A DNA stretch of 32,000 bases, taken from contig CP060232.1 in NCBI GenBank assembly GCA_023898645.1, forward strand, positions 180,001-212,000. The letters are read 5' to 3'. The notes under the pieces were generated by a model. That model did not search any database and was not told the DNA's origin. It was given only the letters and a program-made list of their open reading frames with translations. A program made the translations under genes and the position numbers. The stretch is from Candidatus Saccharimonadota bacterium. GTDB taxonomy: Bacteria; Patescibacteriota; Saccharimonadia; Saccharimonadales; Saccharimonadaceae. Shown here in pieces: positions 2,872-29,695 of the stretch. Position 1 is the first letter of the stretch, and every line of letters starts with the position of its first letter.

Positions 2872-4722
2872 ATGGACCAAAGTCACATCCGAAATTTCTG
2901 CATCATTGCTCATATTGACCACGGCAAGTCAACGCTTGCCGATCGTATGATGGAAATGACGCATACTGTCGAAAAGCGCGATATGAAATCGCAGCTGCTC
3001 GATAGTATGGATTTGGAGCGTGAAAAGGGTATCACGATCAAGCTCGCACCGGTGCGGATGGCGTATGCGCCTAGAGTAGATGGTAGTTTGTATGTAGTAG
3101 ATGGTGAGAAAAAAAATACCAAATACCAAATACCAAATACCACCTACCAACTAAATCTTATCGACACTCCCGGCCACGTGGACTTTAGCTACGAAGTAAG
3201 CCGTAGTTTGGAGGCATGCGAAGGTGCCGTGTTGGTGGTGGACGCTAGTCAGGGCATTCAGGCGCAGACACTCGCGAATGTATATTTGGCACTGGCTGCA
3301 GATTTGACGATTATTCCGGTGCTTAACAAGATTGATCTACCGGCTGCAGACGTGCCGCGTGTGAGTGCGGAAATTATCAATTTGCTTGGCTGTGACGAAT
3401 CAGACATTTTGAAAATTAGCGCAAAAACAGGCGAGGGTGTAATTGAGGTACTCGATGCAATCGTAGAGCGCATCGCTCCGCCAAAAGGCGACGAAAGCGC
3501 ACCGACGCGTTCGCTGATTTTTGACAGTTATTACGATGATTATCGCGGGGTGATTTTGTATACGCGGACGTTTGACGGAAGCATCAAAAAAGGCGATACA
3601 ATCGAAATGCTTGCCACTGGAGCCCACGGCCTGGCGCTTGAAGTTGGTGCTCTGAACCCAGTGATGAAACCGGGCGAAGCCATCGCAACTGGTGAGATCG
3701 GCTATATCGTGACCAACCTCAAGACCACTCGCGATGCCAAGGTAGGCGATACGGTCACGGTCAAGCGAGCACATGCCAGCGAGCCACTCCCAGGGTATCA
3801 GAACGTCAAGCCATTTGTATATGCTGGGTTCTTCCCAGTGAGTAATGAAGATTATAACGATCTCAAAGATGCTGTCGAAAAGCTCAGCCTGAGCGATAGC
3901 GCATTGCAATTCGAGCCCGAAAACTCTCCGGTACTTGGCTTTGGTGTGCGTATTGGGTTCCTCGGCCTACTGCATATGGATATTATTCGTGAGCGATTGG
4001 AACGTGAATATGACCTTGATTTGGTCGTCACTAATCCATCGACCGATTATCAGGTGACTTTGGCAAAAGGTGAGGAGATTGATATCAAATCCGCGAGCGA
4101 TTTACCAGATATGAGCAAAGTTGCAGAAATACGTGAACCATGGATCAACGGCGAAATCGTGGTGCCGCAAGATTACATTGGCAACGTGATTCAATTGATT
4201 GTGAGCAAACGCGGCAAGCAAAAGAACCTGAGCTACATAGACGAGCGAGCACTCATCAGTTTTGAAGCGCCACTTGCAAATCTGCTCACTGACTTTTACG
4301 ACCAACTCAAGAGTGTGACGAGCGGCTACGGTAGCTTTAACTACGAGTTGAGCGAATATCGTGCTGAAGATTTGGTACGCGTTGATTTCTATGTTGCTGG
4401 CGAAATTGTCGATTCGCTCAGTATTATGCTGCATCGGTCTGAGGCTGAATCTGTCGGTAGGGTAGTAGTCAAAAAGCTCAAAGACGTGATTCCGCGGCAA
4501 AATTTCCAAGTGGCGTTGCAGGCGGCAATTGGTGGTCGATTCATCGCGCGCGAAGATTTGAGTGCATATCGCAAAGACGTGACGACTGGGCTGTATGGTG
4601 GAGACGTAAGCCGCAAAAAGAAAGTCCTCGCCAAGCAGGCAAAAGGCAAAAAACGCATGAAGCGCTTCGGAAAGGTGGATATTCCGTCCGAAGCTTTCAC
4701 GGTGATGCTAAAGCGCGACTAG
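2872..4722 (+). CDS. lepA: Elongation factor 4 (LepA), translational GTPase
   Basis: The N-terminus IRNFCIIAHIDHGKSTLADR (G1), LIDTPGHVDFSYEVSRSL (G3), NKIDLP (G4) and the C-terminal LepA-specific region (...GGDVSRKKKVLAKQAKGKKRMK...) are unmistakable. The protein is 616 aa, with a ~19-aa insertion before G3. Confidence 0.97.
   Translation: MDQSHIRNFCIIAHIDHGKSTLADRMMEMTHTVEKRDMKSQLLDSMDLEREKGITIKLAPVRMAYAPRVDGSLYVVDGEKKNTKYQIPNTTYQLNLIDTPGHVDFSYEVSRSLEACEGAVLVVDASQGIQAQTLANVYLALAADLTIIPVLNKIDLPAADVPRVSAEIINLLGCDESDILKISAKTGEGVIEVLDAIVERIAPPKGDESAPTRSLIFDSYYDDYRGVILYTRTFDGSIKKGDTIEMLATGAHGLALEVGALNPVMKPGEAIATGEIGYIVTNLKTTRDAKVGDTVTVKRAHASEPLPGYQNVKPFVYAGFFPVSNEDYNDLKDAVEKLSLSDSALQFEPENSPVLGFGVRIGFLGLLHMDIIRERLEREYDLDLVVTNPSTDYQVTLAKGEEIDIKSASDLPDMSKVAEIREPWINGEIVVPQDYIGNVIQLIVSKRGKQKNLSYIDERALISFEAPLANLLTDFYDQLKSVTSGYGSFNYELSEYRAEDLVRVDFYVAGEIVDSLSIMLHRSEAESVGRVVVKKLKDVIPRQNFQVALQAAIGGRFIAREDLSAYRKDVTTGLYGGDVSRKKKVLAKQAKGKKRMKRFGKVDIPSEAFTVMLKRD
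3109..3148 (+). repeat. A8 homopolymer followed by heptanucleotide microsatellite (AAATACC x4 plus one degenerate unit) inside lepA
   Basis: The A-run is at 3109-3116. Perfect AAATACC units are at 3114-3120, 3121-3127, 3128-3134 and 3135-3141, and a degenerate ACCTACC is at 3142-3148. The stretch encodes EKKNTKYQIPNTTYQ. Confidence 0.9.
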
Positions 4723-4842: not shown

Positions 4843-5061
4843 GTGTCGATCAATGAGTTGCTAGCATCTGTAAGCAATAAAGAGATGGATCGCAAGGACT
4901 TTTTGAAGTTCTCTCTGTTCGTGATTGCGGGAATGGTTGGTGTTAAGAACATGCTTTCACTGCTAGGGGGTGTTGACTTGCGCCCCGATATGACTCTTGA
5001 AAAAAAGCCGAGCAATACCGGCGGCGGGGTTGGCTATAACAGCGGAAGATACAATAGGTAG
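4843..5061 (+). CDS. Mini-protein P1 (72 aa) with Tat-like signal motif (DRKDFLKF) plus hydrophobic segment and Gly-rich tail
   Basis: GTG start at 4843, with AGGGGG 12 nt upstream. It has two paralogues in the window (25745-25954 and 30825-31028). All three share an N-terminal ~15-aa region, an M-[DT]-R-[KQ]-[DE]-F motif, an h-region and a G/Y/F-rich tail. The gene ends 6 nt before the giant gene. Confidence 0.7.
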   Translation: MSINELLASVSNKEMDRKDFLKFSLFVIAGMVGVKNMLSLLGGVDLRPDMTLEKKPSNTGGGVGYNSGRYNR

Positions 5062-5067
5062 CTTGTT

Positions 5068-8000
5068 GTGGTAGAGCAACGATTACCTGCTATTGATGGT
5101 GACGAAGGGCATTGGGGCGAGATCCTTAATCAATTTCTTTCTAAGGAGCACCACAATACTGGTCTGGACGACCCAACCAACGGTGGCCACCAAAAAATCA
5201 CCATTCAACCCGGTACCGCAGCTGCTGGCACTGCACCGCTCAAGTTCACCAGTGGCACACTCCTCACCGCTCCCGAAGCCGGAGCCATGGAATTCGCCGG
5301 AGACAATTACTACCTCACGCAAACGACTGGCACTACCCGCAAAAAGATCGCCGCTTACGACGATACCTCTGGCGCCACCGGCGACATCTACTACCGCAAT
5401 TCATCTGGCTACTTCACCCGACTCGGCGTTGGCTCTACTGGTAATGTCCTTACTGTTGCCGGAGGTATCCCTTCGTGGTCTTCTTCTATTAGCAACACGA
5501 GCACCATCACTCTCAAAGACACGAACTTCACTTTGCAAGATGACGGCAATACGACCAAGCAGCTCAAGTTTGAACTCAGTGGCATATCTGCAAGCACTAC
5601 GAGAACTCTTACAGTTCCAGACGCCAATACGACAATCGTGGGTACCGACGTCACGCAGACGTTGACGAATAAAACCATTACTAGTCCGACGATTGATGGC
5701 ACGCCAATTAGTACATTTGCTGATACGTCGGGCGGTTCTACGGTTGGGCGTAAATATCTCCTAGATATACCTATCGTTCCAGATCAAACAAGTGCTGGTG
5801 TGAGCGGCGGCGCAACTATTGTGGGCTTGCAAAATGATCTGGCGTATTTAACGGCACGAGGTGGTGCGATTACAGTTACCCAAAACAGTGTTGATATATC
5901 AAGTTCGGTGTTGCCTGAAAACTGGTTCATTCCAGGTAATTATGTCAATTTGCCTGTAGATGCAACAAGCGATGTATACGTCATCACGATCACTAGGCCA
6001 ACTAGTAATATATATAGTAATTATTGGGGGTGGGGCCAGATAGGGCTTAATTTTCGTAACGGATTCCACGCCAAAGACGTAAAGCTTGAGGTCAACTCAG
6101 GTGGCGTATGGACGACACTGCTTGATGTTACGAATGATTCATCATCTGCAAAATTTGCTCGTTATCAGACACTTAATCCGCCATACGCTGAGCAATTTCG
6201 AATTACTCTAACTAATCTAGCTTACGTCAATGTTACTGGTCTGCGAATACAGAATATTTGGGCGACGAGTTTATCGGCCAATCCGGCGGTAATGTCTAAC
6301 CTTACGTATTTACCTCGCGGAGGCGGCTCTATTATTGGTACGTCTGCGGCACCTCCAACATTTACAGCAGCAGGAAATGATTCAAATATTGGTATCAACT
6401 TGGTACCAAAGGGTACGGGAACTGTCACGGTAGGGGGAGTGGACGTCGTTACAACAACTGGTACCCAAACGCTGACGAATAAGACGCTGACAAATCCTAG
6501 AATTAATCAGATTAATGACACCAACGGAAACACCTCTATAGCACTAATTGCCACTGCTAGTGCTGTGAGCTATTTGCATGTAACCAATGCTGCCACCGGG
6601 TCGTTTGCCGTCGGAGGTGGTGTAGTACTGAGGCCAGAAAGCACCGATACAGACGTTAACTTACTCGCCAAGCCGAGAGGATCTGGGTATGTTGGTATTT
6701 CTGATTCTGCGTCTGGCTGGATCGCAAAGTTCGCACGAACCGCTGGCGCAAATGCTAATTATTGGAACATTCAAGGGAGTAGTGCAGGCGGCGCAGTGAC
6801 GCTTACTGCTGCGGGTACTGACAGCTCCATCAATGCCAATATTGTCTCCAAGGGTACGGGTACAGTCCAGGCAAATGGTGTCGATGTCGTCACGACCACC
6901 GGCACGCAAACTCTGACGAACAAAACTATCTCTGGCGCTTCTAATACCCTAAGTAATATTCCTCAATCGGCAATTACCAATCTAACTACTGACATCACCA
7001 CTGCTCAGACTACTGCCGACACTGCGCAGAAGTTCATCGATCTCAAGGCGTCCGGATTGCCTAATATAGCTTCCGATCCAAGCTGTTCGGTTCCTGAATT
7101 GTGGGCTACTAATGGTTTTGGCTCCAACTGGACGGGAGAAGTCAGCAATGAGCAGGCAGTTTCGGGTACCCAATCGCTGAAGATGACGATTACTGGATCG
7201 TCATACCCCACGCTAACCTTCCTACGTACTAAGGATGGCGATTATATTCCAGACATCGACTCGCTTCGGGTTCGCCCAGGCGACAAATTTTACATGGAAG
7301 TGTATATTCGAGCCCATGCTTCGAATGCTGTCACTAATACACTCTTTTATATTCAAGCGTGGTCTACTGACTCCACAGGGGTAAATGGCTACGCCTTCAT
7401 CAATAGTACCGGAGTCGCGCCAAGTACGAGTGGCTGGACGAAGCTAACTCATACCTATACAGTGCCTGCCGGTCGGGATCGATTGAACATAAGACTCGCC
7501 GGAAGCCTCAACAATGGGATTGGCGATATTTATTATGTCGACAATCTATTGTGGTTGAATGTTACCGATACTCAAGACATCATAGACAATGTTTATCAGG
7601 GTATAAACGGCGGATCTAGTACGTGGAATTCACTTGCTACTATGAAGACCGCTATCCAATCTCTAGTCACGCTCACAGGCACTCAGACTCTTACAAATAA
7701 GACGTTGACGTCGCCAAAGATTAATCAAATTCTCGACAGCAATGGCGTGGCTGTCCTTGGCCTTACTACTACTGCAAGTGCAGCAAACTATGTCAATATC
7801 CGCAACAAGGCTGCCGGTTCTGGTCCGTTTGTCGAGACAGCTGGTTCTGATACCGATATTCCTCTTAATTTAAGCACGAAGGGTACAGGCCTTATCCATC
7901 TTTCTCCTGGTGGTACTGCGGCGCTGCAGGTTGGATATACTGCATCATCTGTAAACTATTTTAGACTTACAGGAAGCGCAACTGGTTCTGGACCGACGCT

Positions 8001-11000
8001 TTTCGCGAATGGCACCGACACGAATGTCGACATGTTGCTGACGACTAAGGGCTCGGGTGTTGTTAAGGCAAATGGTGTTGAAGTGGTGACTGTAGACGGC
8101 ACCCAAACTTTGACGAACAAAACAATCACATCACCTGTGATTAATAGTGCTACTGGTATCTCTGTTGGTGCGGTGGTATCTCCTACTGGTTCATCGAATC
8201 CTCCTAAAATTACCTTTAATCTGACATACGGCACGAATTCGCCGGGTAGTAATGCCAACCAAAAGATTCAACTCTACGCGGGCTATGGTTTTGGCTTGTC
8301 TGCTTCTATGCTTGAATACCAAGTAGTTACTGGCGCTGTCCATCGCTTCTTCGTAGGTGGCAGCGAACGAATGTCGATAAGTGGATCTGATGTGACAATC
8401 GGTGGAGTATCCGCTGCAACTACAACAGGTACGCAAACCCTCACCAATAAAACACTGACATCACCTAAGGTAAATTCAATCTATGATACCAATGGCGCAA
8501 ACGCGCTGTATATGACACCTACAGCGAATGCAGTTAATTATACCGAGTTGCGAAACGCTCCGGCGGGAAGCGCTAATCAGATTCGAAGTATTGGAGCAGA
8601 CACGAATATTAGCATGATGTTGGTGCCTAAGGGTAGCGGAAACGTTCAAATCTATTCCAATACCGGCATTACTCCGACTATTACTGCTGTTGGTGCAGAT
8701 GCCAATCACAATCTAAACCTCGTTCCTAAAGGCACTGGCACAGTACAGGCAAATGGTGTCGATATCGTTACTATATCTGGTACACAAACTCTCGCCAACA
8801 AAACTCTGACGAGTCCAAAAATAAATGCAATACTGGATACGAATGGCGCCACATCTCTTTCGGTTGGTGCCACAGCAAGTGCTGTAAACTATCTGACGAT
8901 TAATAATTCAGCCACGTCTTTGGCACCTAATCTTACCGCGACCGGATCTGACGCGAATATCAATCTAGACCTTAATCCAAAGGGCTCGGGCAAGGTACGA
9001 ATTATCGGTGTTCCAGTAGTAACCGAAACTGGCGGAGCGACCCTTACCAATAAAACTATCTCTGCGTCGAGCAATACTATATCTAATATTGCTGTATCAA
9101 ATCTCGACGCCAGTGCAGTTGTGACGGCAGCAGAAACTATAGCAGCCAACAACAACGACACGACTATTCCAACTTCGGCGGCAGTAAAGAGTTACGTAGA
9201 TAGCACGGGTAGTGGAGATGCATCGACCAATACTGCAACGTCGGTAGATAGCGAAGTGGCTGTATTTTCTGGTACGACAGGCAAGTTACTCAAGCGCGCC
9301 ACAGGCAGCGGTGTAGCCATACTAACATCGGGTGTCCTGAGCACAGTTACGGCACCGAGTGGCACGATTGTTGGTACCACCGACGCGCAGACACTTACCA
9401 ACAAAACGCTCACAAGTCCGACGATTAATGGAGCGACAATTACTGGTACGGTTCAGCTTCCTGAGCCGAATCAACTTACTGTTTCCTCGGCAAGTTTGAC
9501 TAACAAGAATTACGCTATATCCAATGACGTTTCGATTGGTGCATATCCTGCTTTCAATGCTTTTAGTAAGTACTTGTGGCACGATATTCTCCGATTTGGT
9601 AGGTGGATTGGAACGGGCACCTATGAAACATATGCAAGCGGTTCTTGGTCGAGTGCTACTAATCCGACAATCGTTTTCGCCGGCAAGGAGTCTGGTGCGT
9701 ATACACTCGCCGACGGAGCAACAACTACTGCCGTACGATGGACGTGGAATTCCGGCAATTTGTCATATAGTGGCCTATCTTGGATAATGATTGGCTTCGG
9801 CTATGGTAGTCCGGCTCCAAGTAATGAAGTTACAGTTGAATCAGGTACAGACGGTACCAACTGGACGACCCGACATACCTCTACTACAACTGCCAATGCG
9901 ACGTTCGCGGCCTTTCCGTTGACGGGTGTGGGTGGTGATACGTATTTACGCTTGACTATCACTACTACAAACAGTCGGCCTATTTACCTCAATTCGATAA
10001 AGGGACTAACTAACAGGCCCGCAAATCAAGGTGGTGGTGCGGATACTGAGTATCCTTATGACTGGGATGCCAATCGAAATATCACTCTGGGATCAGGGAT
10101 TACTGCGCGCTCCGACGGTATTCTTAATATTGGCTCTACGACTACGACTACAGCTGCGGGCGGTATTTATTTTGGCAACGACACGAACTTATATCGCAGC
10201 GCAGCGAACACCCTCAAGACAGACGACAATCTAGCCATCGGTACATCCACTCAGACCGCCACAGCTACCCCCGCCAACATCAACCTCGGTGGTACGTATG
10301 GCAACAATACCGTTGGTACTCAGGGTAATCTCAAGTTGCGACTATACGACAATGGTAGTGGCAGCAACCATTTTGGTTTGGGTATTTCGGATTCCAAGCT
10401 GGAATATCAGGTACCGAATGGGTCTGGCCATCATTTTTATGTCAATGGCGTCGAGCGGCTCAAGATTACCAACTCTTTGGTGCAGGTTGCCGGTGCTGAT
10501 GTAGTCACCACTACTGGCACGCAGACATTGACCAACAAAACTCTGACGAGTCCAAAAATAAATGCAATACTGGATACGAATGGCGCCACATCTCTTTCGG
10601 TTGGTGCCACAGCAAGTGCTGTAAACTATCTGACGATTAATAATTCAGCCACGTCTTTGGCACCTAATCTTACCGCGACCGGATCTGACGCGAATATCAA
10701 TCTAGACCTTAATCCAAAGGGCTCGGGCAAGGTACGAATTATCGGTGTTCCAGTAGTAACCGAAACTGGCGGAGCGACCCTTACCAATAAAACTATCTCT
10801 GCGTCGAGCAATACTATATCTAATATTGCTGTATCAAATCTCGACGCCAGTGCAGTTGTGACGGCAGCAGAAACTATAGCAGCCAACAACAACGACACGA
10901 CTATTCCAACTTCGGCGGCAGTAAAGAGTTACGTAGATAGCACGGGTAGTGGAGATGCATCGACCAATACTGCAACGTCGGTAGATAGCGAAGTGGCTGT

Positions 11001-13230
11001 ATTTTCTGGTACGACAGGCAAGTTACTCAAGCGCGCCACAGGCAGCGGTGTAGCCATACTAACATCGGGTGTCCTGAGCACAGTTACGGCACCGAGTGGC
11101 ACGATTGTTGGTACCACCGACGCGCAGACACTTACCAACAAAACGCTCACAAGTCCGACGATTAATGGAGCGACAATTACTGGTACGGTTCAGCTTCCTG
11201 AGCCGAATCAACTTACTGTTTCCTCGGCAAGTTTGACTAACAAGAATTACGCTATATCCAATGACGTTTCGATTGGTGCATATCCTGCTTTCAATGCTTT
11301 TAGTAAGTACTTGTGGCACGATATTCTCCGATTTGGTAGGTGGATTGGAACGGGCACCTATGAAACATATGCAAGCGGTTCTTGGTCGAGTGCTACTAAT
11401 CCGACAATCGTTTTCGCCGGCAAGGAGTCTGGTGCGTATACACTCGCCGACGGAGCAACAACTACTGCCGTACGATGGACGTGGAATTCCGGCAATTTGT
11501 CATATAGTGACCTATCTTGGATAATGATTGGCTTCGGCTATGGTAGTCCGGCTCCAAGTAATGAAGTTACAGTTGAATCAGGTACAGACGGTACCAACTG
11601 GACGACCCGACATACCTCTACTACAACTGCCAATGCGACGTTCGCGGCCTTTCCGTTGACGGGTGTGGGTGGTGATACGTATTTACGCTTGACTATCACT
11701 ACTACAAACAGTCGGCCTATTTACCTCAATTCGATAAAGGGACTAACTAACAGGCCCGCAAATCAAGGTGGTGGTGCGGATACTGAGTATCCTTATGACT
11801 GGGATGCCAATCGAAATATCACTCTGGGATCAGGGATTACTGCGCGCTCCGACGGTATTCTTAATATTGGCTCTACGACTACGACTACAGCTGCGGGCGG
11901 TATTTATTTTGGCAACGACACGAACTTATATCGCAGCGCAGCGAACACCCTCAAGACAGACGACAATCTAGCCATCGGTACATCCACTCAGACCGCCACA
12001 GCTACCCCCGCCAACATCAACCTCGGTGGTACGTATGGCAACAATACCGTTGGTACTCAGGGTAATCTCAAGTTGCGACTATACGACAATGGTAGTGGCA
12101 GCAACCATTTTGGTTTGGGTATTTCGGATTCCAAGCTGGAATATCAGGTACCGAATGGGTCTGGCCATCATTTTTATGTCAATGGCGTCGAGCGGCTCAA
12201 GATTACCAACTCTTTGGTGCAGGTTGCCGGTGCTGATGTAGTCACCACTACTGGCACGCAGACATTGACCAACAAAACTCTGACGAGTCCAAAAATAAAT
12301 GCAATACTGGATACGAATGGCGCCACATCTCTTTCGGTTGGTGCCACAGCAAGTGCTGTAAACTATCTGACGATTAATAATTCAGCCACGTCTTTGGCAC
12401 CTAATCTTACCGCGACCGGATCTGACGCGAATATCAATCTAGACCTTAATCCAAAGGGCTCGGGCAAGGTACGAATTATCGGTGTTCCAGTAGTAACCGA
12501 AACTGGCGGAGCGACCCTTACCAATAAAACTATCTCTGCGTCGAGCAATACTATATCTAATATTGCTGTATCAAATCTCGACGCCAGTGCAGTTGTGACG
12601 GCAGCAGAAACTATAGCAGCCAACAACAACGACACGACTATTCCAACTTCGGCGGCAGTAAAGAGTTACGTAGATAGCACGGGTAGTGGAGATGCATCGA
12701 CCAATACTGCAACGTCGGTAGATAGCGAAGTGGCTGTATTTTCTGGTACGACAGGCAAGTTACTCAAGCGCGCCACAGGCAGCGGTGTAGCCATACTAAC
12801 ATCGGGTGTCCTGAGCACAGTCACGGCTCCAAGCGGTACGATTGTTGGCACCACGGACGCGCAAACGCTTACAAACAAGACTTTAACAAGCCCGACAGTC
12901 AATGGCTATACCGAGGGTGTTGTGGCTATCGGAACCGTGACAACGAGCTACACGCTTGCTATCACAAGCGGCACAGTACTCACGGCTACATTGACTGCCT
13001 CGACCGCATGTACGTTTACTATGCCTACGGCTACGGCGGGCAAATCATTTACGTTGATGCTTAAGCAAGCGGCAAGCACGGGCAACGGCACCGCAACATT
13101 CACAGGTGTGAAATGGAATGCGGCTGGCGCCCCTACGATCACGGCAACTGCAGGGAAGATGGATATACTTAGCTTCTTCTCAGACGGAACAAATTGGTAC
13201 GGATCATATACACAGGGGTATACGCCGTAA
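5068..13230 (+). CDS. Giant (2720 aa) modular surface/adhesin-like protein with tail-fibre-like modules; no signal peptide
   Basis: A single uninterrupted ORF with a GTG start. It contains many ~75-95-aa modules delimited by G-T-Q-T-L-T-N-K-T-[LI]-T-S-P. A CBM-like jelly-roll lies at ~7096-7563 (ELWATNGFGSNWTGE...YYVDNLLWLNV). Discoidin-like segments are also present (...VESGTDGTNWTT...). Motifs common in phage tail-fibre-like proteins occur (APLKFTSGTLLT.PEAGAMEFAGDNYYLT; DTNLYRSAANTLKTDDNL; TTIPTSAAVKSYVDS). The N-terminus MVEQRLPAIDGDEGHWGEILNQFL is not hydrophobic. Confidence 0.9.
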   Translation: MVEQRLPAIDGDEGHWGEILNQFLSKEHHNTGLDDPTNGGHQKITIQPGTAAAGTAPLKFTSGTLLTAPEAGAMEFAGDNYYLTQTTGTTRKKIAAYDDTSGATGDIYYRNSSGYFTRLGVGSTGNVLTVAGGIPSWSSSISNTSTITLKDTNFTLQDDGNTTKQLKFELSGISASTTRTLTVPDANTTIVGTDVTQTLTNKTITSPTIDGTPISTFADTSGGSTVGRKYLLDIPIVPDQTSAGVSGGATIVGLQNDLAYLTARGGAITVTQNSVDISSSVLPENWFIPGNYVNLPVDATSDVYVITITRPTSNIYSNYWGWGQIGLNFRNGFHAKDVKLEVNSGGVWTTLLDVTNDSSSAKFARYQTLNPPYAEQFRITLTNLAYVNVTGLRIQNIWATSLSANPAVMSNLTYLPRGGGSIIGTSAAPPTFTAAGNDSNIGINLVPKGTGTVTVGGVDVVTTTGTQTLTNKTLTNPRINQINDTNGNTSIALIATASAVSYLHVTNAATGSFAVGGGVVLRPESTDTDVNLLAKPRGSGYVGISDSASGWIAKFARTAGANANYWNIQGSSAGGAVTLTAAGTDSSINANIVSKGTGTVQANGVDVVTTTGTQTLTNKTISGASNTLSNIPQSAITNLTTDITTAQTTADTAQKFIDLKASGLPNIASDPSCSVPELWATNGFGSNWTGEVSNEQAVSGTQSLKMTITGSSYPTLTFLRTKDGDYIPDIDSLRVRPGDKFYMEVYIRAHASNAVTNTLFYIQAWSTDSTGVNGYAFINSTGVAPSTSGWTKLTHTYTVPAGRDRLNIRLAGSLNNGIGDIYYVDNLLWLNVTDTQDIIDNVYQGINGGSSTWNSLATMKTAIQSLVTLTGTQTLTNKTLTSPKINQILDSNGVAVLGLTTTASAANYVNIRNKAAGSGPFVETAGSDTDIPLNLSTKGTGLIHLSPGGTAALQVGYTASSVNYFRLTGSATGSGPTLFANGTDTNVDMLLTTKGSGVVKANGVEVVTVDGTQTLTNKTITSPVINSATGISVGAVVSPTGSSNPPKITFNLTYGTNSPGSNANQKIQLYAGYGFGLSASMLEYQVVTGAVHRFFVGGSERMSISGSDVTIGGVSAATTTGTQTLTNKTLTSPKVNSIYDTNGANALYMTPTANAVNYTELRNAPAGSANQIRSIGADTNISMMLVPKGSGNVQIYSNTGITPTITAVGADANHNLNLVPKGTGTVQANGVDIVTISGTQTLANKTLTSPKINAILDTNGATSLSVGATASAVNYLTINNSATSLAPNLTATGSDANINLDLNPKGSGKVRIIGVPVVTETGGATLTNKTISASSNTISNIAVSNLDASAVVTAAETIAANNNDTTIPTSAAVKSYVDSTGSGDASTNTATSVDSEVAVFSGTTGKLLKRATGSGVAILTSGVLSTVTAPSGTIVGTTDAQTLTNKTLTSPTINGATITGTVQLPEPNQLTVSSASLTNKNYAISNDVSIGAYPAFNAFSKYLWHDILRFGRWIGTGTYETYASGSWSSATNPTIVFAGKESGAYTLADGATTTAVRWTWNSGNLSYSGLSWIMIGFGYGSPAPSNEVTVESGTDGTNWTTRHTSTTTANATFAAFPLTGVGGDTYLRLTITTTNSRPIYLNSIKGLTNRPANQGGGADTEYPYDWDANRNITLGSGITARSDGILNIGSTTTTTAAGGIYFGNDTNLYRSAANTLKTDDNLAIGTSTQTATATPANINLGGTYGNNTVGTQGNLKLRLYDNGSGSNHFGLGISDSKLEYQVPNGSGHHFYVNGVERLKITNSLVQVAGADVVTTTGTQTLTNKTLTSPKINAILDTNGATSLSVGATASAVNYLTINNSATSLAPNLTATGSDANINLDLNPKGSGKVRIIGVPVVTETGGATLTNKTISASSNTISNIAVSNLDASAVVTAAETIAANNNDTTIPTSAAVKSYVDSTGSGDASTNTATSVDSEVAVFSGTTGKLLKRATGSGVAILTSGVLSTVTAPSGTIVGTTDAQTLTNKTLTSPTINGATITGTVQLPEPNQLTVSSASLTNKNYAISNDVSIGAYPAFNAFSKYLWHDILRFGRWIGTGTYETYASGSWSSATNPTIVFAGKESGAYTLADGATTTAVRWTWNSGNLSYSDLSWIMIGFGYGSPAPSNEVTVESGTDGTNWTTRHTSTTTANATFAAFPLTGVGGDTYLRLTITTTNSRPIYLNSIKGLTNRPANQGGGADTEYPYDWDANRNITLGSGITARSDGILNIGSTTTTTAAGGIYFGNDTNLYRSAANTLKTDDNLAIGTSTQTATATPANINLGGTYGNNTVGTQGNLKLRLYDNGSGSNHFGLGISDSKLEYQVPNGSGHHFYVNGVERLKITNSLVQVAGADVVTTTGTQTLTNKTLTSPKINAILDTNGATSLSVGATASAVNYLTINNSATSLAPNLTATGSDANINLDLNPKGSGKVRIIGVPVVTETGGATLTNKTISASSNTISNIAVSNLDASAVVTAAETIAANNNDTTIPTSAAVKSYVDSTGSGDASTNTATSVDSEVAVFSGTTGKLLKRATGSGVAILTSGVLSTVTAPSGTIVGTTDAQTLTNKTLTSPTVNGYTEGVVAIGTVTTSYTLAITSGTVLTATLTASTACTFTMPTATAGKSFTLMLKQAASTGNGTATFTGVKWNAAGAPTITATAGKMDILSFFSDGTNWYGSYTQGYTP
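8795..12831 (+). repeat. 1737-bp (579-codon) in-frame tandem repeat, ~2.3 copies, essentially identical
   Basis: The copies span 8795-10531, 10532-12268 and 12269-12831 (partial). Antisense shadow ORFs recur at exactly +1737 (8889/10626/12363; 9192/10929; 9322/11059; 9524/11261). The one copy1/copy2 difference I located is G9773 vs A11510 (SYSGLSW vs SYSDLSW). Confidence 0.97.
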
Positions 13231-13877
13231 TGTTTGCTGCTACGAGTGCCTTTTTTACTGCATCTGCAGCCTTGGTGACAGGCTATCTGTCTACAGGAGC
13301 TGGAGATAGTTCTGCTACATCTAGGACAACCGCCACGTGGAATCATATTGTGGATGACACAACCAACGGTTACTTAGTTGTCTATGTAATGCACTATAAT
13401 AGCGCTTACACAATCTCCTCCGTTACTTGTAATGGTACGAATATGACTGCGATTAGTGCTCAAGTAAATTGGTCTGACGGAGGTAGTTATGGCTTGAGGG
13501 CATACGGTATTGCAAATCCTACGGTAGGAACAAATACAATTGTAGCTACACTTTCGTCAAGTACGTACATAACTGGTCAGTCGGTATTCTACTCTAATGT
13601 AGATGGTTCTAATGTATCTACGAGTACTACTTTCTCGAATGCTTCTATTCCTTGGTCTGACTCTGTAACTGTACCGGCGAGTGGTATGGTTTCTCATGCC
13701 TTCGGTTCGCTTGGCGCACCAGCGGACACTCCAACTGGCGGAACGATTCGATATAATTACGGTACGCATTATAACTGGCTTACTATACAAGATACGGACA
13801 CATCAGATACCTTTGCTACAGTAAGTGGCAATGGCCGCGGCTGGGGGGCTATTAGTGTATCTCTTCCCCGTGCCTGA
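13230..13877 (+). CDS. Hypothetical protein (215 aa from ATG 13230), paralogue of the next gene
   Basis: The ORF track opens at 13194, but the ATG at 13230 overlaps the giant gene's stop as TAATG. The protein shares the pattern T.TW.H....G..V...........V..V.Y.G.......L......Y.........YG......G...... with the following ORF. Confidence 0.7.
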   Translation: MFAATSAFFTASAALVTGYLSTGAGDSSATSRTTATWNHIVDDTTNGYLVVYVMHYNSAYTISSVTCNGTNMTAISAQVNWSDGGSYGLRAYGIANPTVGTNTIVATLSSSTYITGQSVFYSNVDGSNVSTSTTFSNASIPWSDSVTVPASGMVSHAFGSLGAPADTPTGGTIRYNYGTHYNWLTIQDTDTSDTFATVSGNGRGWGAISVSLPRA

Positions 13878-14520
13878 TTCTGGGTATAGTCCTCCGCCAC
13901 CTCCTACGTTAGACTTTCTTGCCGCTGGCGATACTGCAGATAATAACTCATTAAAGACTCTCACCTGGTCGCACACTACCACTGCTGGTGCATGGGTGTT
14001 TTTATGGTTGGCACATTTCGCCCAGACTGGTGGTCCGAATACTGTTACTTATGACGGGAATGATATTACTGGAAACTTATTAGCATCTACAGCTTATACC
14101 GATAGTACCTATCTTAAGTTATATGGTTTTCAGGATGTCACAGGTGGTACAAAAACTTTTGCGATAACTCAAGGTGGCGGTAACACAATGAGGTATGCCG
14201 TAGCTAATTCTGTATCTTATACGGGCATAGCATCGGTGGGTACGCCAGCAACTGCTACTGGTACGCTCACGGAAACGATTAATTGTGTCTCGAATCAATA
14301 TATCTTGCAGTCTTTTGCACGATACTCAGGTACTGCTACAGGTACTATGAATGCTGCTTTCAGCGGCGGTGCGGCTGGAATAAACATTTTTGACAATGTA
14401 GTGCGCGCGACAGGAGGTCGAGGTGGTATATTGATTAACTTTGCCGATGCTAGTACTACATTTTCACTTTCCGATAGTCTCGTAGCGCATAGTATAGGGG
14501 TTGTACTAACGAGAACGTAG
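13825..14520 (+). CDS. Hypothetical protein (231 aa), paralogue of 13230-13877; start uncertain
   Basis: The ORF overlaps the previous gene by 53 nt in the +1 frame. The alternative start is GTG at 13870. It contains a PPPPP stretch and the paralogous core LTWSHTTTAGAWVFLWLAHF...VTYDGNDIT...LKLYGFQDVTGGTKTF. Confidence 0.65.
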   Translation: MAMAAAGGLLVYLFPVPDSGYSPPPPPTLDFLAAGDTADNNSLKTLTWSHTTTAGAWVFLWLAHFAQTGGPNTVTYDGNDITGNLLASTAYTDSTYLKLYGFQDVTGGTKTFAITQGGGNTMRYAVANSVSYTGIASVGTPATATGTLTETINCVSNQYILQSFARYSGTATGTMNAAFSGGAAGINIFDNVVRATGGRGGILINFADASTTFSLSDSLVAHSIGVVLTRT

Positions 14521-14631: not shown

Positions 14632-14753
14632 TACATTTATATGGTGAATGAACGAATCAATAAATAAATCTCATATTATGATAGTGCATAAAGCTATAGT
14701 GGGGTAAGCTTGTATGTGTGGCGGACCAATATGATGCTGATATGTGCGAAATT

Positions 14754-15653
14754 ATGAAGAGAACAAAGCTCATGGCTGCTACATTGGTGACAATTCTATG
14801 TTTTTTACTTGCTCCTGCCCAGACGGTATGCGCCATAAGAGATATAAAGGGTCTAGCGCTCGCTCCCTTACGAACAGAATTGTCAGTTTCGCCGAGTGAG
14901 ACAATCAGTCGCAAACTCCAACTTACAAATTATTCAGATACGCAAATGACCGTGCGCTTGGACGCCGAAGAGTTTGGGGTGGTGAATCAGCAATACGATT
15001 ATTCGTTTGACGCGCAGTCTGATGTGTCGAAGTGGGTGTCGTTTGATTCTCCTGAGGTAGATATTGATCCTGGTAAGACTCATGTGGTGTCGTATGTTGT
15101 AGACGTGCCGCAAAATGCCGAACCGGGCGGGCGATATATAAGTCTCTTTGCATCGAGCGATGTACAAACTGCACCGGGCGAAATCCACACCGAGCAACGA
15201 ATCGCGTCGCTGCTATATTTGACCGTAAGGGGCGACGTAACGCGAATTGGCAGCCTGAAATCACTCAAAAGCCCGGTCGTGTTTGACGGTTATGAACCAT
15301 GGAAGTTGGTTGTCGCGAATACCGGCACGGCGCATTTTCGTAGTAAATACACAGTCAGTGTGAGGAGCATATTTGATAATAGCGAGGTTGCCTCGCGGAG
15401 TGGTGATTCGCTCGTACTGCCGCACACCACGCGAGCTATCTCGGCGCAGATGCCAGTATTGAAATATGTAGGCGTGTATCGAGCCGTATATACCGTTGGG
15501 CTGGGCGATGCGCCTGCGGCTAAGAGGGAATTTATAATCTACTTTTTGCCCAAGCAATCGTATGTGCCGCTTGCTTCGCTAACTGTCATAGTCATTGCGG
15601 GAATATCGTATGTAGTCTGGAAACTGCGACAACGAACGAAAAAGACTGCCTAA
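14754..15653 (+). CDS. Cassette A, type-1 anchor protein: signal peptide, beta-rich ectodomain, C-terminal TM helix plus basic tail (DUF916/DUF3324-like layout)
   Basis: The ORF track opens at GTG 14718. The ATG at 14754 gives a textbook signal peptide (MKRTKLMAATLVTILCFLLAPAQTVCA). The motif NAEPGGRYISLFASS is present. The C-terminus is PLASLTVIVIAGISYVVWKLRQRTKKTA. Paralogue of 26037-26936. Confidence 0.8.
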   Translation: MKRTKLMAATLVTILCFLLAPAQTVCAIRDIKGLALAPLRTELSVSPSETISRKLQLTNYSDTQMTVRLDAEEFGVVNQQYDYSFDAQSDVSKWVSFDSPEVDIDPGKTHVVSYVVDVPQNAEPGGRYISLFASSDVQTAPGEIHTEQRIASLLYLTVRGDVTRIGSLKSLKSPVVFDGYEPWKLVVANTGTAHFRSKYTVSVRSIFDNSEVASRSGDSLVLPHTTRAISAQMPVLKYVGVYRAVYTVGLGDAPAAKREFIIYFLPKQSYVPLASLTVIVIAGISYVVWKLRQRTKKTA

Positions 15654-16234: not shown

Positions 16235-17308
16235 ATGAAATATAGCAAGGGTAAACATTCGCGTAGGCAGACCATCCGAGGGTTGGTTTTTGCGTTTGTA
16301 CTTACGGTTACCCCCTTCTTGCAAGCGCCGTTTGCAAATGCCGGTACTATTACGAATCGTAAAATCACGCTTTCTACCTCTGTAGGGGATGCTTCTGGGG
16401 TTACGTATACATTAACGAGCGACGCCCTTCCGACTACTGGTACAGCTATCAAGTCTGTCGGTGTGCAGTTTTGTACGTCACTAGAGGGCGCTTGTTCTAC
16501 GCCTGCTGGTTTTTCTGCTTCTGCATCGACACTCGCTGTACAGCCTAGTGGTGTCGGCGCCGGGTCTGGATGGACAGTCAATACTGCCTCGGCCGGCTCT
16601 CTTCGTATTGTTAATGCAGCCAACGCTACCAATCCATCTGGCTCAGTCAGTATACAGTGGGGTGGAGTGCACAACCCTACCGCAACCAATACGACGTTTT
16701 ATGCCAAAATCACTACGTACTCTGATGCTGCGTGGACAACAGCAGTAGACTCATCGGACACTGCACTTAGTACCTCTGCTCAAATTCAAGTCGTGCTAGA
16801 TGTCAACGAGGCTCTTACATTTTGTACCGGCACTAGTATCACAGGCCAAAACTGCGCTACTGTCGCAGGGTCTACTGTGGATCTCGGTACTGCATCGACT
16901 ACTGCTACCGCAACAGGTACCTCGGTATTTGCGGCATCGACAAATGGCGAGCATGGGTATACTGTCACGGTAACCGGCCCGACACTAACTTCAGGAAGTA
17001 ACACTATTACGGCTATGGCTGCGAACGCTGCATCTTCGGTTGGTACAAGTCAGTTCGGTATCAATCTTGTGAGCAATGCTACTCCGTCTGTAGGATCTAA
17101 CGTCAGTGGCACAGGTACGGCCGCGGCTACTGCAAATTATAATACGGCTAACTCATTTCGATTTGCTTCAGGAGATGCGGTGGCTAGTGTAAGTGTTCCT
17201 ACCAACGCCAACGCGTTTACAGTCAGCTATATTGCGAACATTGCGGGTGTAACTCCTCCGGGCATTTACACGACAAATCTGCATTATGACGCCACTGCGA
17301 ATTACTAG
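16235..17308 (+). CDS. Cassette A, 357-aa secreted Thr/Ser/Ala-rich protein (putative fibre/surface subunit)
   Basis: The signal is MKYSKGKHSRRQTIRGLVFAFVLTVTPFLQAPFANA. The protein is T/S/A/G-rich and ends ...VTPPGIYTTNLHYDATANY. Paralogue of 28580-29653, which is also 357 aa in the ORF track. Confidence 0.85.
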   Translation: MKYSKGKHSRRQTIRGLVFAFVLTVTPFLQAPFANAGTITNRKITLSTSVGDASGVTYTLTSDALPTTGTAIKSVGVQFCTSLEGACSTPAGFSASASTLAVQPSGVGAGSGWTVNTASAGSLRIVNAANATNPSGSVSIQWGGVHNPTATNTTFYAKITTYSDAAWTTAVDSSDTALSTSAQIQVVLDVNEALTFCTGTSITGQNCATVAGSTVDLGTASTTATATGTSVFAASTNGEHGYTVTVTGPTLTSGSNTITAMAANAASSVGTSQFGINLVSNATPSVGSNVSGTGTAAATANYNTANSFRFASGDAVASVSVPTNANAFTVSYIANIAGVTPPGIYTTNLHYDATANY

Positions 17309-17395
17309 CTGCGCATAGGTAGTGTCCGATAATAACATGCATTCTGTTTTGATATTTTGGAATATCTCATAATCTGATTAGAGAGTGTAAAATAG

Positions 17396-18400
17396 GTGAG
17401 AATGAAGAGAATATTTAATCGAGCAACGATTTTGATTATCGCTATGCTTGTTTCCGTGTCGTTGCTCCCAGCGGATTTGTATGCGCAATCGGCAGGAGCT
17501 GCACAAGGTGTCCAACTAAGTCCATCGATAATCGAGTTGAATGCTGAGCGCGGGGGTATTTACACCCTTACTGTAGAGGTGACAAATGTTACGGCTGGGG
17601 ATTTAGACTACGCAGTTTCAGTAAATGATTTTACTTCTAAGGATGAAACAGGCTCGCCAAAGGTGTTACGTAATTCTCAACTGCCTAAGCAGATTTCAAT
17701 TCGTACATGGACCACGCCATCCGTATCTTCTTTTCACCTTAATACACGCAAAAGTAGTACGGTTGAGTTTAAGGTAATCGTACCAGCAGATGCCGAACCG
17801 GGTGGCCACTACGGTGTACTGGATTTTTCCGGATCTAATACAAACATAAAGCAAACAGGTGTTGGGCTGACGGCAAGCGCAGGCACGCTGCTGCTTGTGA
17901 AGGTCGACGGCGCTATCAAGGAGAATGCTTCGATTGCTTCGTTTTACACTGTGAATAATGGCAAAGAGTCGAACTTTTTTGAAAATAGTCCGGTGAGTTT
18001 TATTACCCGGGTTCAAAATACCGGCAACATTCATATCAAGCCGTTTGGCGCCATTGAGCTAAAAAATATGTTTGGATCGATTGTGGCTACACTGCCGGTA
18101 AACAAAGTGCAGTCTAATGTTTTGCCTAAGAGTATTCGGCGTTTTGACAGTACCTATGGTGAGTATATGATCGGTTTTTATACTGCAACGGTAACACTCG
18201 GCTATGGATCGCAGGGGCAAGCGATTATTGCAAGTACGTCGTTTTGGGTCATACCATACAAATTGATAGCGACCATTCTACTCGTGATCGCGCTGGTTAT
18301 CTTTATTCTCAGAAGGATACAGATAGCGTACAATAGGAGAGTAATCAAAAAATACAAAAACGCACAACAAAAAGATGATTCGAAAGAAAGCAAAAACTAA
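17396..18400 (+). CDS. Cassette A, type-2 anchor protein: signal peptide, ectodomain, C-terminal TM helix plus basic tail
   Basis: The start is GTG 17396 or ATG 17402. The signal is MKRIFNRATILIIAMLVSVSLLPADLYA. Internal motifs are ADAEPGGHYGVLDF and NTGNIHIKPFGAIELKNMFG. The C-terminus is FWVIPYKLIATILLVIALVIFILRRIQIAYNRRVIKKYK. Paralogue of 29672-30769. Confidence 0.85.
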   Translation: MRMKRIFNRATILIIAMLVSVSLLPADLYAQSAGAAQGVQLSPSIIELNAERGGIYTLTVEVTNVTAGDLDYAVSVNDFTSKDETGSPKVLRNSQLPKQISIRTWTTPSVSSFHLNTRKSSTVEFKVIVPADAEPGGHYGVLDFSGSNTNIKQTGVGLTASAGTLLLVKVDGAIKENASIASFYTVNNGKESNFFENSPVSFITRVQNTGNIHIKPFGAIELKNMFGSIVATLPVNKVQSNVLPKSIRRFDSTYGEYMIGFYTATVTLGYGSQGQAIIASTSFWVIPYKLIATILLVIALVIFILRRIQIAYNRRVIKKYKNAQQKDDSKESKN

Positions 18401-19517
18401 AACTACTCGGTATAAAGTCAAAAAGGTTGCGCATCCGATAGCTACCAAGTTAAAGCTTTTGCAACATGCCCATACCGGGCGTATTGTTCATCGTCACCAT
18501 ACGTCGTATCCAGTTCTATTAATACTTCTTGTTATTACGGGATTTTTTGTGTTCGTTGGGTATGATATTTCGGCGGCCGATACAAATGTGACCGTCGGTC
18601 TTACCGTGCCTGCGGAGCCACCTACCGAAGGTGCGGTAATCACATCGCCCAAAAATGGTACCGTTTCTAAAAAGGCAATAATCGATGTTAAAGGAACATG
18701 TTCTATTACGTCTGAAGTCGTTGTGTATAGTAATAACACGCTTGTTGGTTCGACATTATGCACGACAGAATCGACATTTCAGCTGAAAATTCAGCTATTT
18801 GGTGGCATTAATAAACTGACAGCATTGAACTATAATGGCATGAACCAAGCTGGGCCGATTACGCCTAGCGTGAAAGTGATATACGTGGCACCTCCAAATA
18901 CAGGAGCCACAGAGGTACCGGTGTACCCAATCGTGGTTCCGGGCGTAACGCCAACGTCGCCTGAATCTTGTACGCAAAAAGCAACGTCTGATGCGTGTAA
19001 CAAAACATATGTGGTGTCGTGCAACGACTACAGCTCAAACAAGGGCATTCCGGTATCAAAAGAAGTTCGCGCAGCAATCATTTGCCTGCAACGTCATGTG
19101 AGTACCGCAGGAGAAACGATAATCGGCATATTGGTGTGGGGCGGCAGCCCGCCATATGCCGTCACGATTAACTGGGGCGATGGTTCTGCGGACTTGGTAA
19201 AGAGTATAAGTAAGCCGGGGTATTTTACGGTCTCAAAAAAGTACACTGAAAAAGGCCAATACACCATTGAGGTGCAGTCTTTTGATAGTAATGGTAAGCA
19301 GGCATTTATGCAGGCGACAATTGATGTTTCCGGACCAGAAAAGCCAAAAGATTTTATTGGCTATGTAGGTAATAGCATGAATCTATCTTGGTTTGATTCG
19401 CCCGTTCCAACGTATTTTCTTGCTGTCGCAATCGTGATTGGATTTTGGGCTGGTGATTATTTTGAGCGGGCGATTCTTGCAACTCGCAAGGTACGCGGAC
19501 GTCGTCGGCATGCGTAG
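18375..19517 (+). CDS. Cassette A, doubly anchored protein: His-rich N-terminal motif, TM, Ig-like and PKD-like domains, C-terminal TM plus Arg tail
   Basis: The N-terminus is ...KLKLLQHAHTGRIVHRHHTSYPVLLILLVITGFFVF. The PKD-like signature is VTINWGDGSA...KKYTEKGQYTIEVQSFDSNGKQA. The C-terminus is PTYFLAVAIVIGFWAG...RKVRGRRRHA. It overlaps the previous gene by 26 nt. Paralogue of 27530-28516. Confidence 0.85.
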   Translation: MIRKKAKTKTTRYKVKKVAHPIATKLKLLQHAHTGRIVHRHHTSYPVLLILLVITGFFVFVGYDISAADTNVTVGLTVPAEPPTEGAVITSPKNGTVSKKAIIDVKGTCSITSEVVVYSNNTLVGSTLCTTESTFQLKIQLFGGINKLTALNYNGMNQAGPITPSVKVIYVAPPNTGATEVPVYPIVVPGVTPTSPESCTQKATSDACNKTYVVSCNDYSSNKGIPVSKEVRAAIICLQRHVSTAGETIIGILVWGGSPPYAVTINWGDGSADLVKSISKPGYFTVSKKYTEKGQYTIEVQSFDSNGKQAFMQATIDVSGPEKPKDFIGYVGNSMNLSWFDSPVPTYFLAVAIVIGFWAGDYFERAILATRKVRGRRRHA

Positions 19518-24337: not shown

Positions 24338-24523
24338 ATGTTTGGAATAGGGACACCTGAATTAATCATTATCCTGCTGATCGTCCTGTTGTTGGTCGGT
24401 GGAAAAAAACTGCCAGAACTAGCACGTAGCGTAGGCCAGTCAATGCAAGAACTGCGCAAGGGCATGAGTGATGGGTCAAAGAAAACAACAACACGATCTA
24501 GCGAAGAAGCAGAAGAAGCCTAG
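24338..24523 (+). CDS. tatA: Twin-arginine translocase subunit TatA/E
   Basis: MFGIGTPELIIILLIVLLLVGGKKLPELARSVGQSMQELRKG is the canonical TatA TM plus amphipathic helix. SD GGGAG lies upstream. Confidence 0.93.
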   Translation: MFGIGTPELIIILLIVLLLVGGKKLPELARSVGQSMQELRKGMSDGSKKTTTRSSEEAEEA

Positions 24524-25661
24524 TACGCCTAACAAAAACCTGACGTTTTTGGAGCATATTTACGAGCTTCGAACACGTTTGTTTTGGGTGGTATTTGCGC
24601 TTGTTGTCGCATCGGCAATAGGCTTCCAGTTTAAGGATCAATTGATTAGTTTGGTCATGGCACCGCTCCATGGCCAAAAGCTAATTTATTTGACTCCTGG
24701 TGGTGGGTTTAGCTTTATTTTCACCATTAGCATTTATTTCGGTGCTCTTTTGTGTATTCCGATCGCTGTTTATCATATGTATCGCTTTATGGAGCCGTTA
24801 TTGGGTGGTACTTCGCGAAAAGTCGTTGCGGCATTTATAATTATTTCTGCTTTTCTGGCGACAGCAGGCGCTTCGTTTGGCTATTTTGTAACCGTTCCTG
24901 CGGCCATAGATTTTTTGGCAACATTTGCCGGCAATGCCGTGGTGCCAAGCCTTACGGCGGAGTCGTATCTTAGTTTTGTGGTTACATACATATTCGGCCT
25001 TGCAGCATTATTCCAAATTCCGCTGCTTCTCTTTATTTTCGATTATGTACGACCATTGCCGCCAAAGGCACTACTGTCGGCTCAGAGATACGTTATTATA
25101 GCCGCTACAGTTTTGGCGGCGATCATCACGCCTACCCCAGATGCTTTGAATATGGCCATTGTTGCCATACCTATTATTGCCGTGTATGAAGTAGGCGCAA
25201 TCGCTGTGTATATTCGACACCGCGTAGGAGGAAAACGCTATGTTGTTGGGCGGAATACTTTGGATGGCGACGAACCACTAACCGCCATTATTGAAGAGCT
25301 CGAACGATCACATTCCGAAAAAGAGCAGGTGAGGCAGCCGGACTTTGAGGAAGACATGGAATTTGCTTTTGACGATGAACTTGATGTATTTGCCGACGAA
25401 GCGTACGAACCAGTTGCACCCGCCGCTGAATTAAACGAAACGAAGCCAGTGGTGGCTACTGCAAACGTTGCGCCAGTGCAAATAGTATCTTCGCCTGTTC
25501 GTCGCAGCGCGATGGATGGCATGGTGCGTGGCCGAGCTCAACCTGTCGCAATTCGGCCCCCTGCAAGAAACGTACAACCTGCGCGCATGCCGCAGCGACC
25601 AACCATACAGTCTCGACCTATGCGTTCTGTGGACGGTTTTTCGATGATGAGTCGGGCGTAA
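24468..25661 (+). CDS. tatC: Twin-arginine translocase subunit TatC with ~145-aa C-terminal extension
   Basis: LTFLEHIYELRTRLFWV matches the TatC N-terminal HL.ELR.R motif, followed by six hydrophobic segments. The ATG at 24468 overlaps tatA by 56 nt, and there is no in-frame ATG or GTG after the tatA stop. The residues after ~250 are acidic and then Pro/Arg-rich. Confidence 0.88.
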   Translation: MMGQRKQQHDLAKKQKKPSTPNKNLTFLEHIYELRTRLFWVVFALVVASAIGFQFKDQLISLVMAPLHGQKLIYLTPGGGFSFIFTISIYFGALLCIPIAVYHMYRFMEPLLGGTSRKVVAAFIIISAFLATAGASFGYFVTVPAAIDFLATFAGNAVVPSLTAESYLSFVVTYIFGLAALFQIPLLLFIFDYVRPLPPKALLSAQRYVIIAATVLAAIITPTPDALNMAIVAIPIIAVYEVGAIAVYIRHRVGGKRYVVGRNTLDGDEPLTAIIEELERSHSEKEQVRQPDFEEDMEFAFDDELDVFADEAYEPVAPAAELNETKPVVATANVAPVQIVSSPVRRSAMDGMVRGRAQPVAIRPPARNVQPARMPQRPTIQSRPMRSVDGFSMMSRA

Positions 25662-28516: not shown

Positions 28517-28579
28517 TGCATTGTGCTTGTGTTATGACACCGCTTACGTTATACTGGCACCAAAGTTATATGTACATTC

Positions 28580-29653: not shown

Positions 29654-29695
29654 AAGTTTACGGTTTCTAGCTTGTGTACATTGGCTAGATGTATA

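Follow-up and report, generated by a model that had tools for sequence, protein, structure and literature searches.

An in-frame tandem amplification of a three-module cassette, in all likelihood real and very young, lies inside a giant phage-tail-fibre-like gene on the chromosome of a Saccharibacteria bacterium. The gene occupies positions 5068-13230 of the window, that is, the whole stretch of 32,000 nt analysed here (Candidatus Saccharimonadota bacterium, assembly GCA_023898645.1, contig CP060232.1, positions 180,001 to 212,000). It starts with GTG, a start also called in contigs of the Logan short-read assemblies, and encodes a protein of 2720 amino acids (aa) built as a chain of modules parted by 15 copies of a joint motif, T-L-(T/A)-N-K-T, usually TQTLTNKT. 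Coordinates below are window positions, and the gene, its modules, repeat copies and junctions are all read on the plus strand.

Direct comparison of the sequence with itself at an offset of 1737 shows that bases 8795-11084 equal the bases 1737 nt downstream with one exception, and 2289 matches in 2290 positions cannot be due to chance. The array extends over 8795-12821 (4027 nt, i.e., 2.318 copies of a unit of 1737 nt or 579 codons), in frame inside the open reading frame (ORF), and is made of a first copy (8795-10531, modules A, B and C), a second copy (10532-12268) and a partial third copy of 553 nt (12269-12821, module A and most of module B). The copies are 99.94-100% identical to each other, and the three A-B segments of 553 nt are all identical. 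The sole difference between the two full copies is nonsynonymous, G at 9773 (GGC, Gly1569) against A at 11510 (GAC, Asp2148). The 1737 spacing was also recovered by a separate repeat search, while the array escaped Tandem Repeats Finder, whose longest period was 500. An earlier note, made from the letters of this DNA, had described a 1737-nt in-frame repeat whose unit of 579 codons preserves the frame within one ORF, with a single Gly-to-Asp mismatch; all of this is borne out by the offset comparison. Its end point of 12831, by contrast, lies 10 nt too far: exact identity stops at 12821, and positions 12822, 12828 and 12831 are already mismatched between copies. There are 15 differences in the 70 nt from 12822 on; 14 of them fall on the third base of a codon, and none alters the 25-aa peptide. 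Because the differences are nearly all in third positions and the peptide is kept, the similarity past 12821 is an old paralogous likeness under purifying selection, lying outside the young repeat.

In motif-to-motif register the unit comprises three motif-delimited modules, where two had been counted before: A (84 aa, 8806-9057), B (117 aa, 9058-9408, carrying the segment AETIAANNNDTTIPTSAAVKSYVDS) and C (378 aa, 9409-10542). Downstream of the array, 12822-13230 encodes the end of a paralogous module, B', the last joint (12865) and a conserved C-terminal domain of tail-fibre type (135 aa), a region identical or nearly so in two relatives, L015 and L005, which are described below. The N-terminal region of the protein matches PHROG families of virion structural proteins and tail fibres, and the last 135 aa match PHROG 9017 and 7760. 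The resemblance to tail fibres is one of sequence as well as fold (PHROG 692/38058/9017/7760, tblastn against phages, BFVD). No PHROG matches the repeat unit itself, Pfam and NCBIfam hold no family for the giant protein or for the unit, and PDB sequence searches with the unit and with the C-terminal domain returned nothing meaningful. Homologues of the unit in protein databases come from Patescibacteria and Saccharibacteria and, among the matches listed, are all ~1000 aa long or shorter.

Within module C, a CBM32/discoidin-fold β-sandwich can be recognised at 9571-10116 (core 9604-10011), with its second copy at 11308-11853 in repeat copy 2. In the AlphaFold2 model of the unit, residues ~270-405 form this sandwich with a predicted local distance difference test score (pLDDT) of 70-87, and the best Foldseek match in the PDB is the CBM32 structure 4a42_A (template modelling score 0.68), next to 7d2a_A, both pointing to the discoidin or F5-8 type C fold. 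The discoidin-like domain proposed in the earlier note is thereby supported at fold level; the corresponding Pfam match (F5_F8_type_C) is weak, with an E-value of 0.034. Position 9773, where the two copies differ, lies within this domain, at a residue that varies among homologues.

The affinities of the globular domains point to actinophages. The best structural match of the CBM32-like domain in BFVD is the minor tail protein (gp52) of Gordonia phage OneUp (E 3e-13), and in tblastn the domain is 33% identical to gp40 of Gordonia phage Bantam (E 3e-16); two further globular domains match gp47 of Gordonia phage BrutonGaster and gp27 of Mycobacterium phage Dori (tblastn). When the whole protein was compared with 50,697 phage records by tblastn, 14 records matched, 12 of them from Gordonia or Mycobacterium phages, and the matches fall under genes annotated as minor tail protein (E 3e-16 to 2e-10). 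Actinophages are well represented in the collection searched, yet form a minority there. From these similarities, the protein is probably an attachment fibre for host cells (Actinobacteria), composed of actinophage-type receptor-binding modules, and the fibre is probably trimeric and of phage type rather than a monomeric rod. A separate observation concerns module B: a contig binned as Gordonia sp. (CAZVVS010000083.1, G+C 68.8%) encodes at 5018-7526 a collagen-like tail-fibre protein containing VTAAETIAANNNDTTIPTSAAVKAYAD, nearly the same peptide as in module B of the Saccharibacteria fibre.

On the left the array begins at 8795, inside the motif T-L-(A/T)-N-K-T and on the middle base of its third codon, in agreement with the earlier proposal that the unit starts inside the joint. 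What stands before copy 1 is unique sequence, whereas copies 2 and 3 follow on the end of module C, and the two contexts can last be told apart at base 8794/10531. Directly after it stand 11 nt, CCAACAAAACT, which encode part of (T/A)-N-K-T and occur at 8795-8805, at the C-to-A junction site (10532-10542) and at 12269-12279. In the relative L005, another module takes over after C, starting at the equivalent of 10543, with the ancestral C-end joint at L005 4583-4663. Because the copies differ before 8795/10532 and L005 differs from the equivalent of 10543 onwards, the C-to-A tandem junction was made within these 11 nt. The joint motif is conserved as protein and not as DNA, the in-register exact runs between different joints being 7 nt long in the median and never above 13 nt. 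Since the tandem junction used only 11 nt, the first duplication fits a rare microhomology or homeologous event, not ordinary homologous unequal crossing-over. The motif-driven unequal crossing-over put forward earlier thus keeps its site, as rearrangements do fall at the motif, but not its mechanism, the exact DNA homology between joints reaching 13 nt at most and the junction spanning 11 nt.

The right end of the array has a separate origin. Compared with L015 and L005, ~30% of the window's positions differ up to 12817, and from 12818 on the window is 100% identical to L015. Because identity with L015 starts at 12818 and identity between copies ends at 12821, this end is a second crossover, distinct from the tandem junction, in which module B of copy 3 and its paralogue B' were joined within 12818-12821. 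The partial third copy is therefore not simply truncated: it matches as described earlier, up to 12821, and there ends in a second recombination junction.

The simplest histories would take two or three events. In one, the cassette would have been amplified through the joint in one or two rounds, and a B x B' deletion would have followed; in the other, an older A-B' pair would have been converted, after which the resulting identical 553-nt segments would have undergone unequal exchange. Only after the first duplication would perfect 1.7-kb repeats supply real homology. RecA-dependent unequal exchange would from then on add or remove steps of 579 aa at high frequency, and each step gained would bring one CBM32-like lectin domain and a stretch of fibre shaft, altering reach and valency.

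Relatives place the array on a background of pervasive module turnover. The nearest GTDB genome, the metagenome-assembled genome (MAG) Candidatus Saccharibacteria bacterium HKST-UBA63 (L005), is syntenic at 86-96% DNA identity. Its ORF of at least 2747 aa shares the early modules with the window (147-259-140-110 aa) and then continues with different ones, after which B-C occurs once, 94.5% identical to window 9040-10542, followed by ~3.2 kb of modules not in the window and then by B' and the same C-terminal domain, and no near-identical internal repeat was found in it. The Logan contig L015 (SRR7638747), whose flanks are 97.8-98.6% identical to the window, likewise carries L005-type modules ahead of the C-terminus. 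A more distant orthologue, L006, is only 1096 aa long and has its modules in another order, B-C preceding a module that comes after it in the window. In these relatives the B-C cassette is thus present once, or other modules stand in place of the array; when JGI metagenome contigs and IMG/VR were scanned with the unit as query, no close relatives came up. Homology blocks shared with L005 and L006 start or end at 8453, 8805, 9040 and 10542, all of them edges of joint motifs, and the strain L021, 99.3% identical, diverges right after the joint at 6469-6486. Because block ends and the divergence of L021 fall on joints, the joint is the site where modules are exchanged. As in other cases of motif-guided shuffling, breakpoints lie in or next to short motifs that bracket the modules, here the TL(T/A)NKT joints; only the B/B' junction departs from this, lying 44-47 nt upstream of the next joint.

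Such a recombination-prone modular gene might well produce duplications as neutral, transient by-products, to be lost again, and this explanation of the array is possible though it seems to us rather doubtful. Tandem duplications are, as is generally known, common in bacteria and collapse readily, and the array has been seen in one genome only. The duplication has, however, kept both the frame and the module boundaries; the window-type signatures of the left and right junctions recur at 100% identity across several SRA accession series, which suggests an established allele; and the pervasive module turnover in the gene family is typical of receptor-binding proteins under selection.

As for age, the events that made the array appear to postdate the split from the 94-98% identical strains, which favours a recent expansion over long-term concerted evolution. 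An old array held identical by continuous gene conversion is improbable, even though tandem repeats are homogenised in this way, the pair B and B' attests to older paralogous modules within the gene, and internal repeats recur in the fibre family (exact ones of at least 25 aa in 16 of 120 members): relatives at 94-98% nucleotide identity (L005, L015) are without the array and carry different modules in its place, so that the array postdates these splits. Of the two options that the earlier note had left side by side, recent expansion or ongoing concerted evolution, the great youth of the array stands and concerted evolution is disfavoured.

Perfect repeats of 1.7 kb are also a classic source of assembly error, and the array or its copy number may have been inflated or mis-joined by the assembler, the true gene holding one unit or 1.3. 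An independent check is offered by Logan short-read contigs from several runs that match the window at 100% identity. The public runs in which the strain is present at this identity are SRR14493015, SRR12358675/6, SRR14234112/4/5 and SRR28385526-9. Four of them (SRR14493015, SRR12358676, SRR14234112 and SRR14234114) end exactly at 8824, 30 nt into the unit, whose first 30-mer is found nowhere in the window but at the three unit starts. These ends are expected of a de Bruijn graph with k = 31, which we take to be the value used by Logan, when the unit's first 30-mer has two predecessors, one of them the C-to-A junction; they also bear out the warning of the earlier note that short-read assemblies would run into trouble at the array. 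On the right side, 12269 is the exact first position of contig L016 (SRR28385528), which matches the window at 100% identity as far as 14643 and so reads across the B/B' junction, confirming the passage from A-B to B' and the C-terminus. Because four independent assemblies end k-1 nt into the repeat, as a second in-edge produces, and because L016 spans the right junction, an artefact at the junctions is unlikely. An array of 2.3 copies with one single-nucleotide polymorphism (SNP) is, moreover, beyond a short-read-only assembler, and long reads probably underlie the window. As to the single G/A difference, polishing may have introduced it, or it may be a SNP between strains, and no independent contig with the C-to-A junction was retrieved. 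In sum, the junctions are well supported, the exact copy number is not covered by that support, and an array owed to the assembler as a whole is quite improbable. As a further observation on these graphs, three contigs from three runs (L017-L019) all begin exactly at 13140, inside the conserved C-terminal domain, which would imply a recurrent branch caused by a polymorphism at 13139 or by sharing with a paralogous gene. No Logan contig on record starts at the right-hand branch (12793-13230).

Several observations weigh against the reading of the locus as a young, functional amplification in a surface fibre. L016 crosses the B-to-C branch unbroken, unlike what a graph of 2.3 copies would give, and this we attribute to low coverage or tip clipping. 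Contigs of SRR28385526 and SRR28385528 end at 8807 instead of 8824, implying a coexisting variant in the first Leu codon behind the joint, at its third base (8807/8808). The copy number of 2.3, as against 1.3 or 3.3, is that of the given assembly and comes from it alone, and no strain with another copy number of this array was found, the length or antigenic variation suggested in the earlier note being a hypothesis at the level of populations. As to the protein, simple sequence criteria revealed no signal peptide, transmembrane segment or LPXTG motif that would speak for a surface location, and no hydrophobic segment is present, the maximum Kyte-Doolittle mean over 19 residues being 1.33. The AlphaFold2 monomer of the unit is poor outside the β-sandwich (pLDDT 55 overall), and the role in host attachment is deduced solely from similarity to phage tail proteins at 30-36% identity.

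The fibre gene is a chromosomal gene of a Saccharibacteria-type member of the Candidate Phyla Radiation (CPR). Its flanks are cellular, with genes for LepA (2872-4722), a class III aminotransferase, an amidinotransferase-like protein, adenylate kinase, HrcA, GrpE and TatC, so that it does not lie within a phage or prophage structural gene module but among housekeeping neighbours whose synteny is kept in the Saccharibacteria MAG. Tail-like products are nevertheless encoded nearby. An 895-aa protein (127-2814, +), with three lectin-like repeats (WLRLRESGGTIYWETSPDGSTW...) and a C-terminal domain, matched 53 phage records, all from actinophages (Mycobacterium, Gordonia, Streptomyces), where its counterparts are annotated as minor tail protein or glycoside hydrolase; it belongs to the same tail-like neighbourhood, with LepA between it and the fibre gene. 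Directly downstream of the fibre gene, two small ORFs (13230-13877 and 13825-14520, +) resemble actinophage minor tail genes by their phage matches, the 215-aa downstream ORF matching only Mycobacterium phages in the search of phage records. That the gene belongs to a prophage or phage as a true virion tail fibre is very unlikely, and a prophage origin is rejected on gene context: the PHROG and tblastn matches of the giant gene, ORF1 and the small downstream ORFs to tail fibre and minor tail proteins speak for it, but Pfam or PHROG scans of 30 window ORFs revealed no capsid, portal, terminase, tape-measure or integrase gene, LepA separates the tail-like genes, the flanks and their synteny are those of the MAG, the G+C matches the genome, IMG/VR holds no close relative, and a conserved chromosomal 'tail fibre-like protein' is described from CPR bacteria (bioRxiv 10.64898/2026.03.03.709456). 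Variation of the diversity-generating retroelement type or by simple-sequence phase variation was considered as well and rejected, there being no reverse transcriptase among the ORFs scanned and the unit being 1737 nt long.

The surroundings of the gene vary among strains too. In L005 the slot of the two small ORFs (8398-9081 there) holds a single ORF without detectable similarity. The slot after the fibre gene thus appears to be a hypervariable accessory site. A little further on, between the small ORFs and a 311-aa gene, similarity is lost over ~200 nt (14644-14844) in the contigs L015-L018 from four runs, which would make this another strain-variable spot. Directly upstream of the giant gene, a 72-aa ORF (4843-5061, +), 100% conserved in 12 Logan contigs, combines a single hydrophobic helix with a Tat-signal-like motif, DRKDFLKFS, and TatC (24468-25661) and a TatA-like gene lie in the same window; the product of the 72-aa ORF could anchor the fibre or be its partner in the membrane.

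A further fibre gene, a paralogue of the first, begins at an ATG at 31369 (+), with the ribosome-binding site AAAGGAGGG and the product start MPTPQRLPIVNSDDGVWGDILRQYLAKEH, and runs past the window end at 32000; its bases 31481-31888 share 87% identity with 5178-5585. A degenerate heptamer, GTTAGGA, stands in 4.7 copies some 90-125 nt upstream of this ATG (31245-31277), and another 7-nt tandem repeat, AAATACC in 5.3 copies, lies inside the LepA coding sequence (3114-3150). Elsewhere in the window, two runs of ORFs of 330-380 aa (16235-19517 and 27530-30769, +) have no significant family match, with only a weak, below-threshold Ig/Fn3-like hint for the ORFs at 27530-28516 and 14718-15653; the products of these runs might be candidate surface or pilus components.

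To our knowledge, only pili have so far been implicated in host recognition by ultrasmall CPR epibionts, and we found no paper in the library searched that ties CPR fibre-like proteins to actinophage tail proteins or describes the TLTNKT joint. The locus offers a concrete and testable candidate for CPR host recognition, one whose domains and neighbours resemble tail proteins of Gordonia and Mycobacterium phages and whose module content differs between near-identical strains, and its young tandem cassette shows fibre remodelling under way now. Cultivated Saccharibacteria grow on Actinobacteria (PMC10633639), and the cultivated relative Candidatus Mycosynbacter amalyticus, which preys on Gordonia amarae (bioRxiv 10.64898/2026.03.03.709456), has one of the homologues of the fibre, GII36_05060 ('Minor tail protein' in UniRef). 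Tentatively, Saccharibacteria epibionts might capture actinobacterial hosts of Gordonia or Mycobacterium type with domesticated actinophage-type fibres, recombination at TQTLTNKT switching host range or avidity; amplification and contraction of the lectin cassette at the joint would then act as a population-level switch. If so, a bacterial predator or parasite would have taken over from phages their answer to the same problem of recognition. Because short-read assemblies break exactly at such arrays, giant fibre genes are expected to be systematically truncated in MAGs.

Among known systems, the actinophage minor tail proteins are those that the globular domains of the fibre, the duplicated CBM32-like domain included, match at 31-36% identity, and the neighbouring ORFs match the same phage group. 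The giant protein is, however, 2-3 times longer, with similarity confined to single domains, and the G+C content is high in actinophages against 47-50% here, where no phage structural module surrounds the fibre gene. A chromosomal tail-fibre-like gene in Saccharibacteria is not without parallel: an uncharacterised 'tail fibre-like protein' is conserved near the pam pilus operon in CPR genomes (bioRxiv 10.64898/2026.03.03.709456), a likeness drawn from its description only, and our window differs from that locus in having no ATP synthase or recognised pam genes.

The array also recalls periscope proteins (SasG, Rib/Alp, Bap-like), surface stalks that vary in length through near-identical tandem repeats (PMC9704523). 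Common to both is a tandem array of highly identical, in-frame DNA repeats (near 100%; here 2.32 copies with one mismatch) in a very long fibre-like protein, in which gain or loss of a unit alters length while leaving the frame intact and at which short-read assemblies collapse or break. The periscope unit is, however, a single domain of 70-130 aa, as opposed to a 579-aa three-module cassette with a lectin domain, and here there are only 2.3 copies in a giant protein that lacks the signal peptide and wall anchor by which periscope proteins are held at the cell surface. In T4 gp37, domain duplications expand host range, and recombination takes place between conserved motifs (Tetart 1996, 1998, as cited in PMC3157838). 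As far as that secondary account goes, T-even tail-fibre adhesins share with the present gene the tandem duplication of a receptor-binding segment of a tail fibre and differ from it in that the fibre gene here belongs to the chromosome of a CPR cell, its unit is far larger, and the TQTLTNKT motif and the modules are unrelated in sequence. Because anchor and signal peptide are lacking, the gene stands outside a phage and the unit is a 579-aa multi-module cassette, the array is not a clean member of either the periscope or the T-even adhesin group. In-frame tandem duplication is itself familiar from both, and what is new is the setting, the remodelling of an actinophage-like fibre locus in a CPR epibiont.

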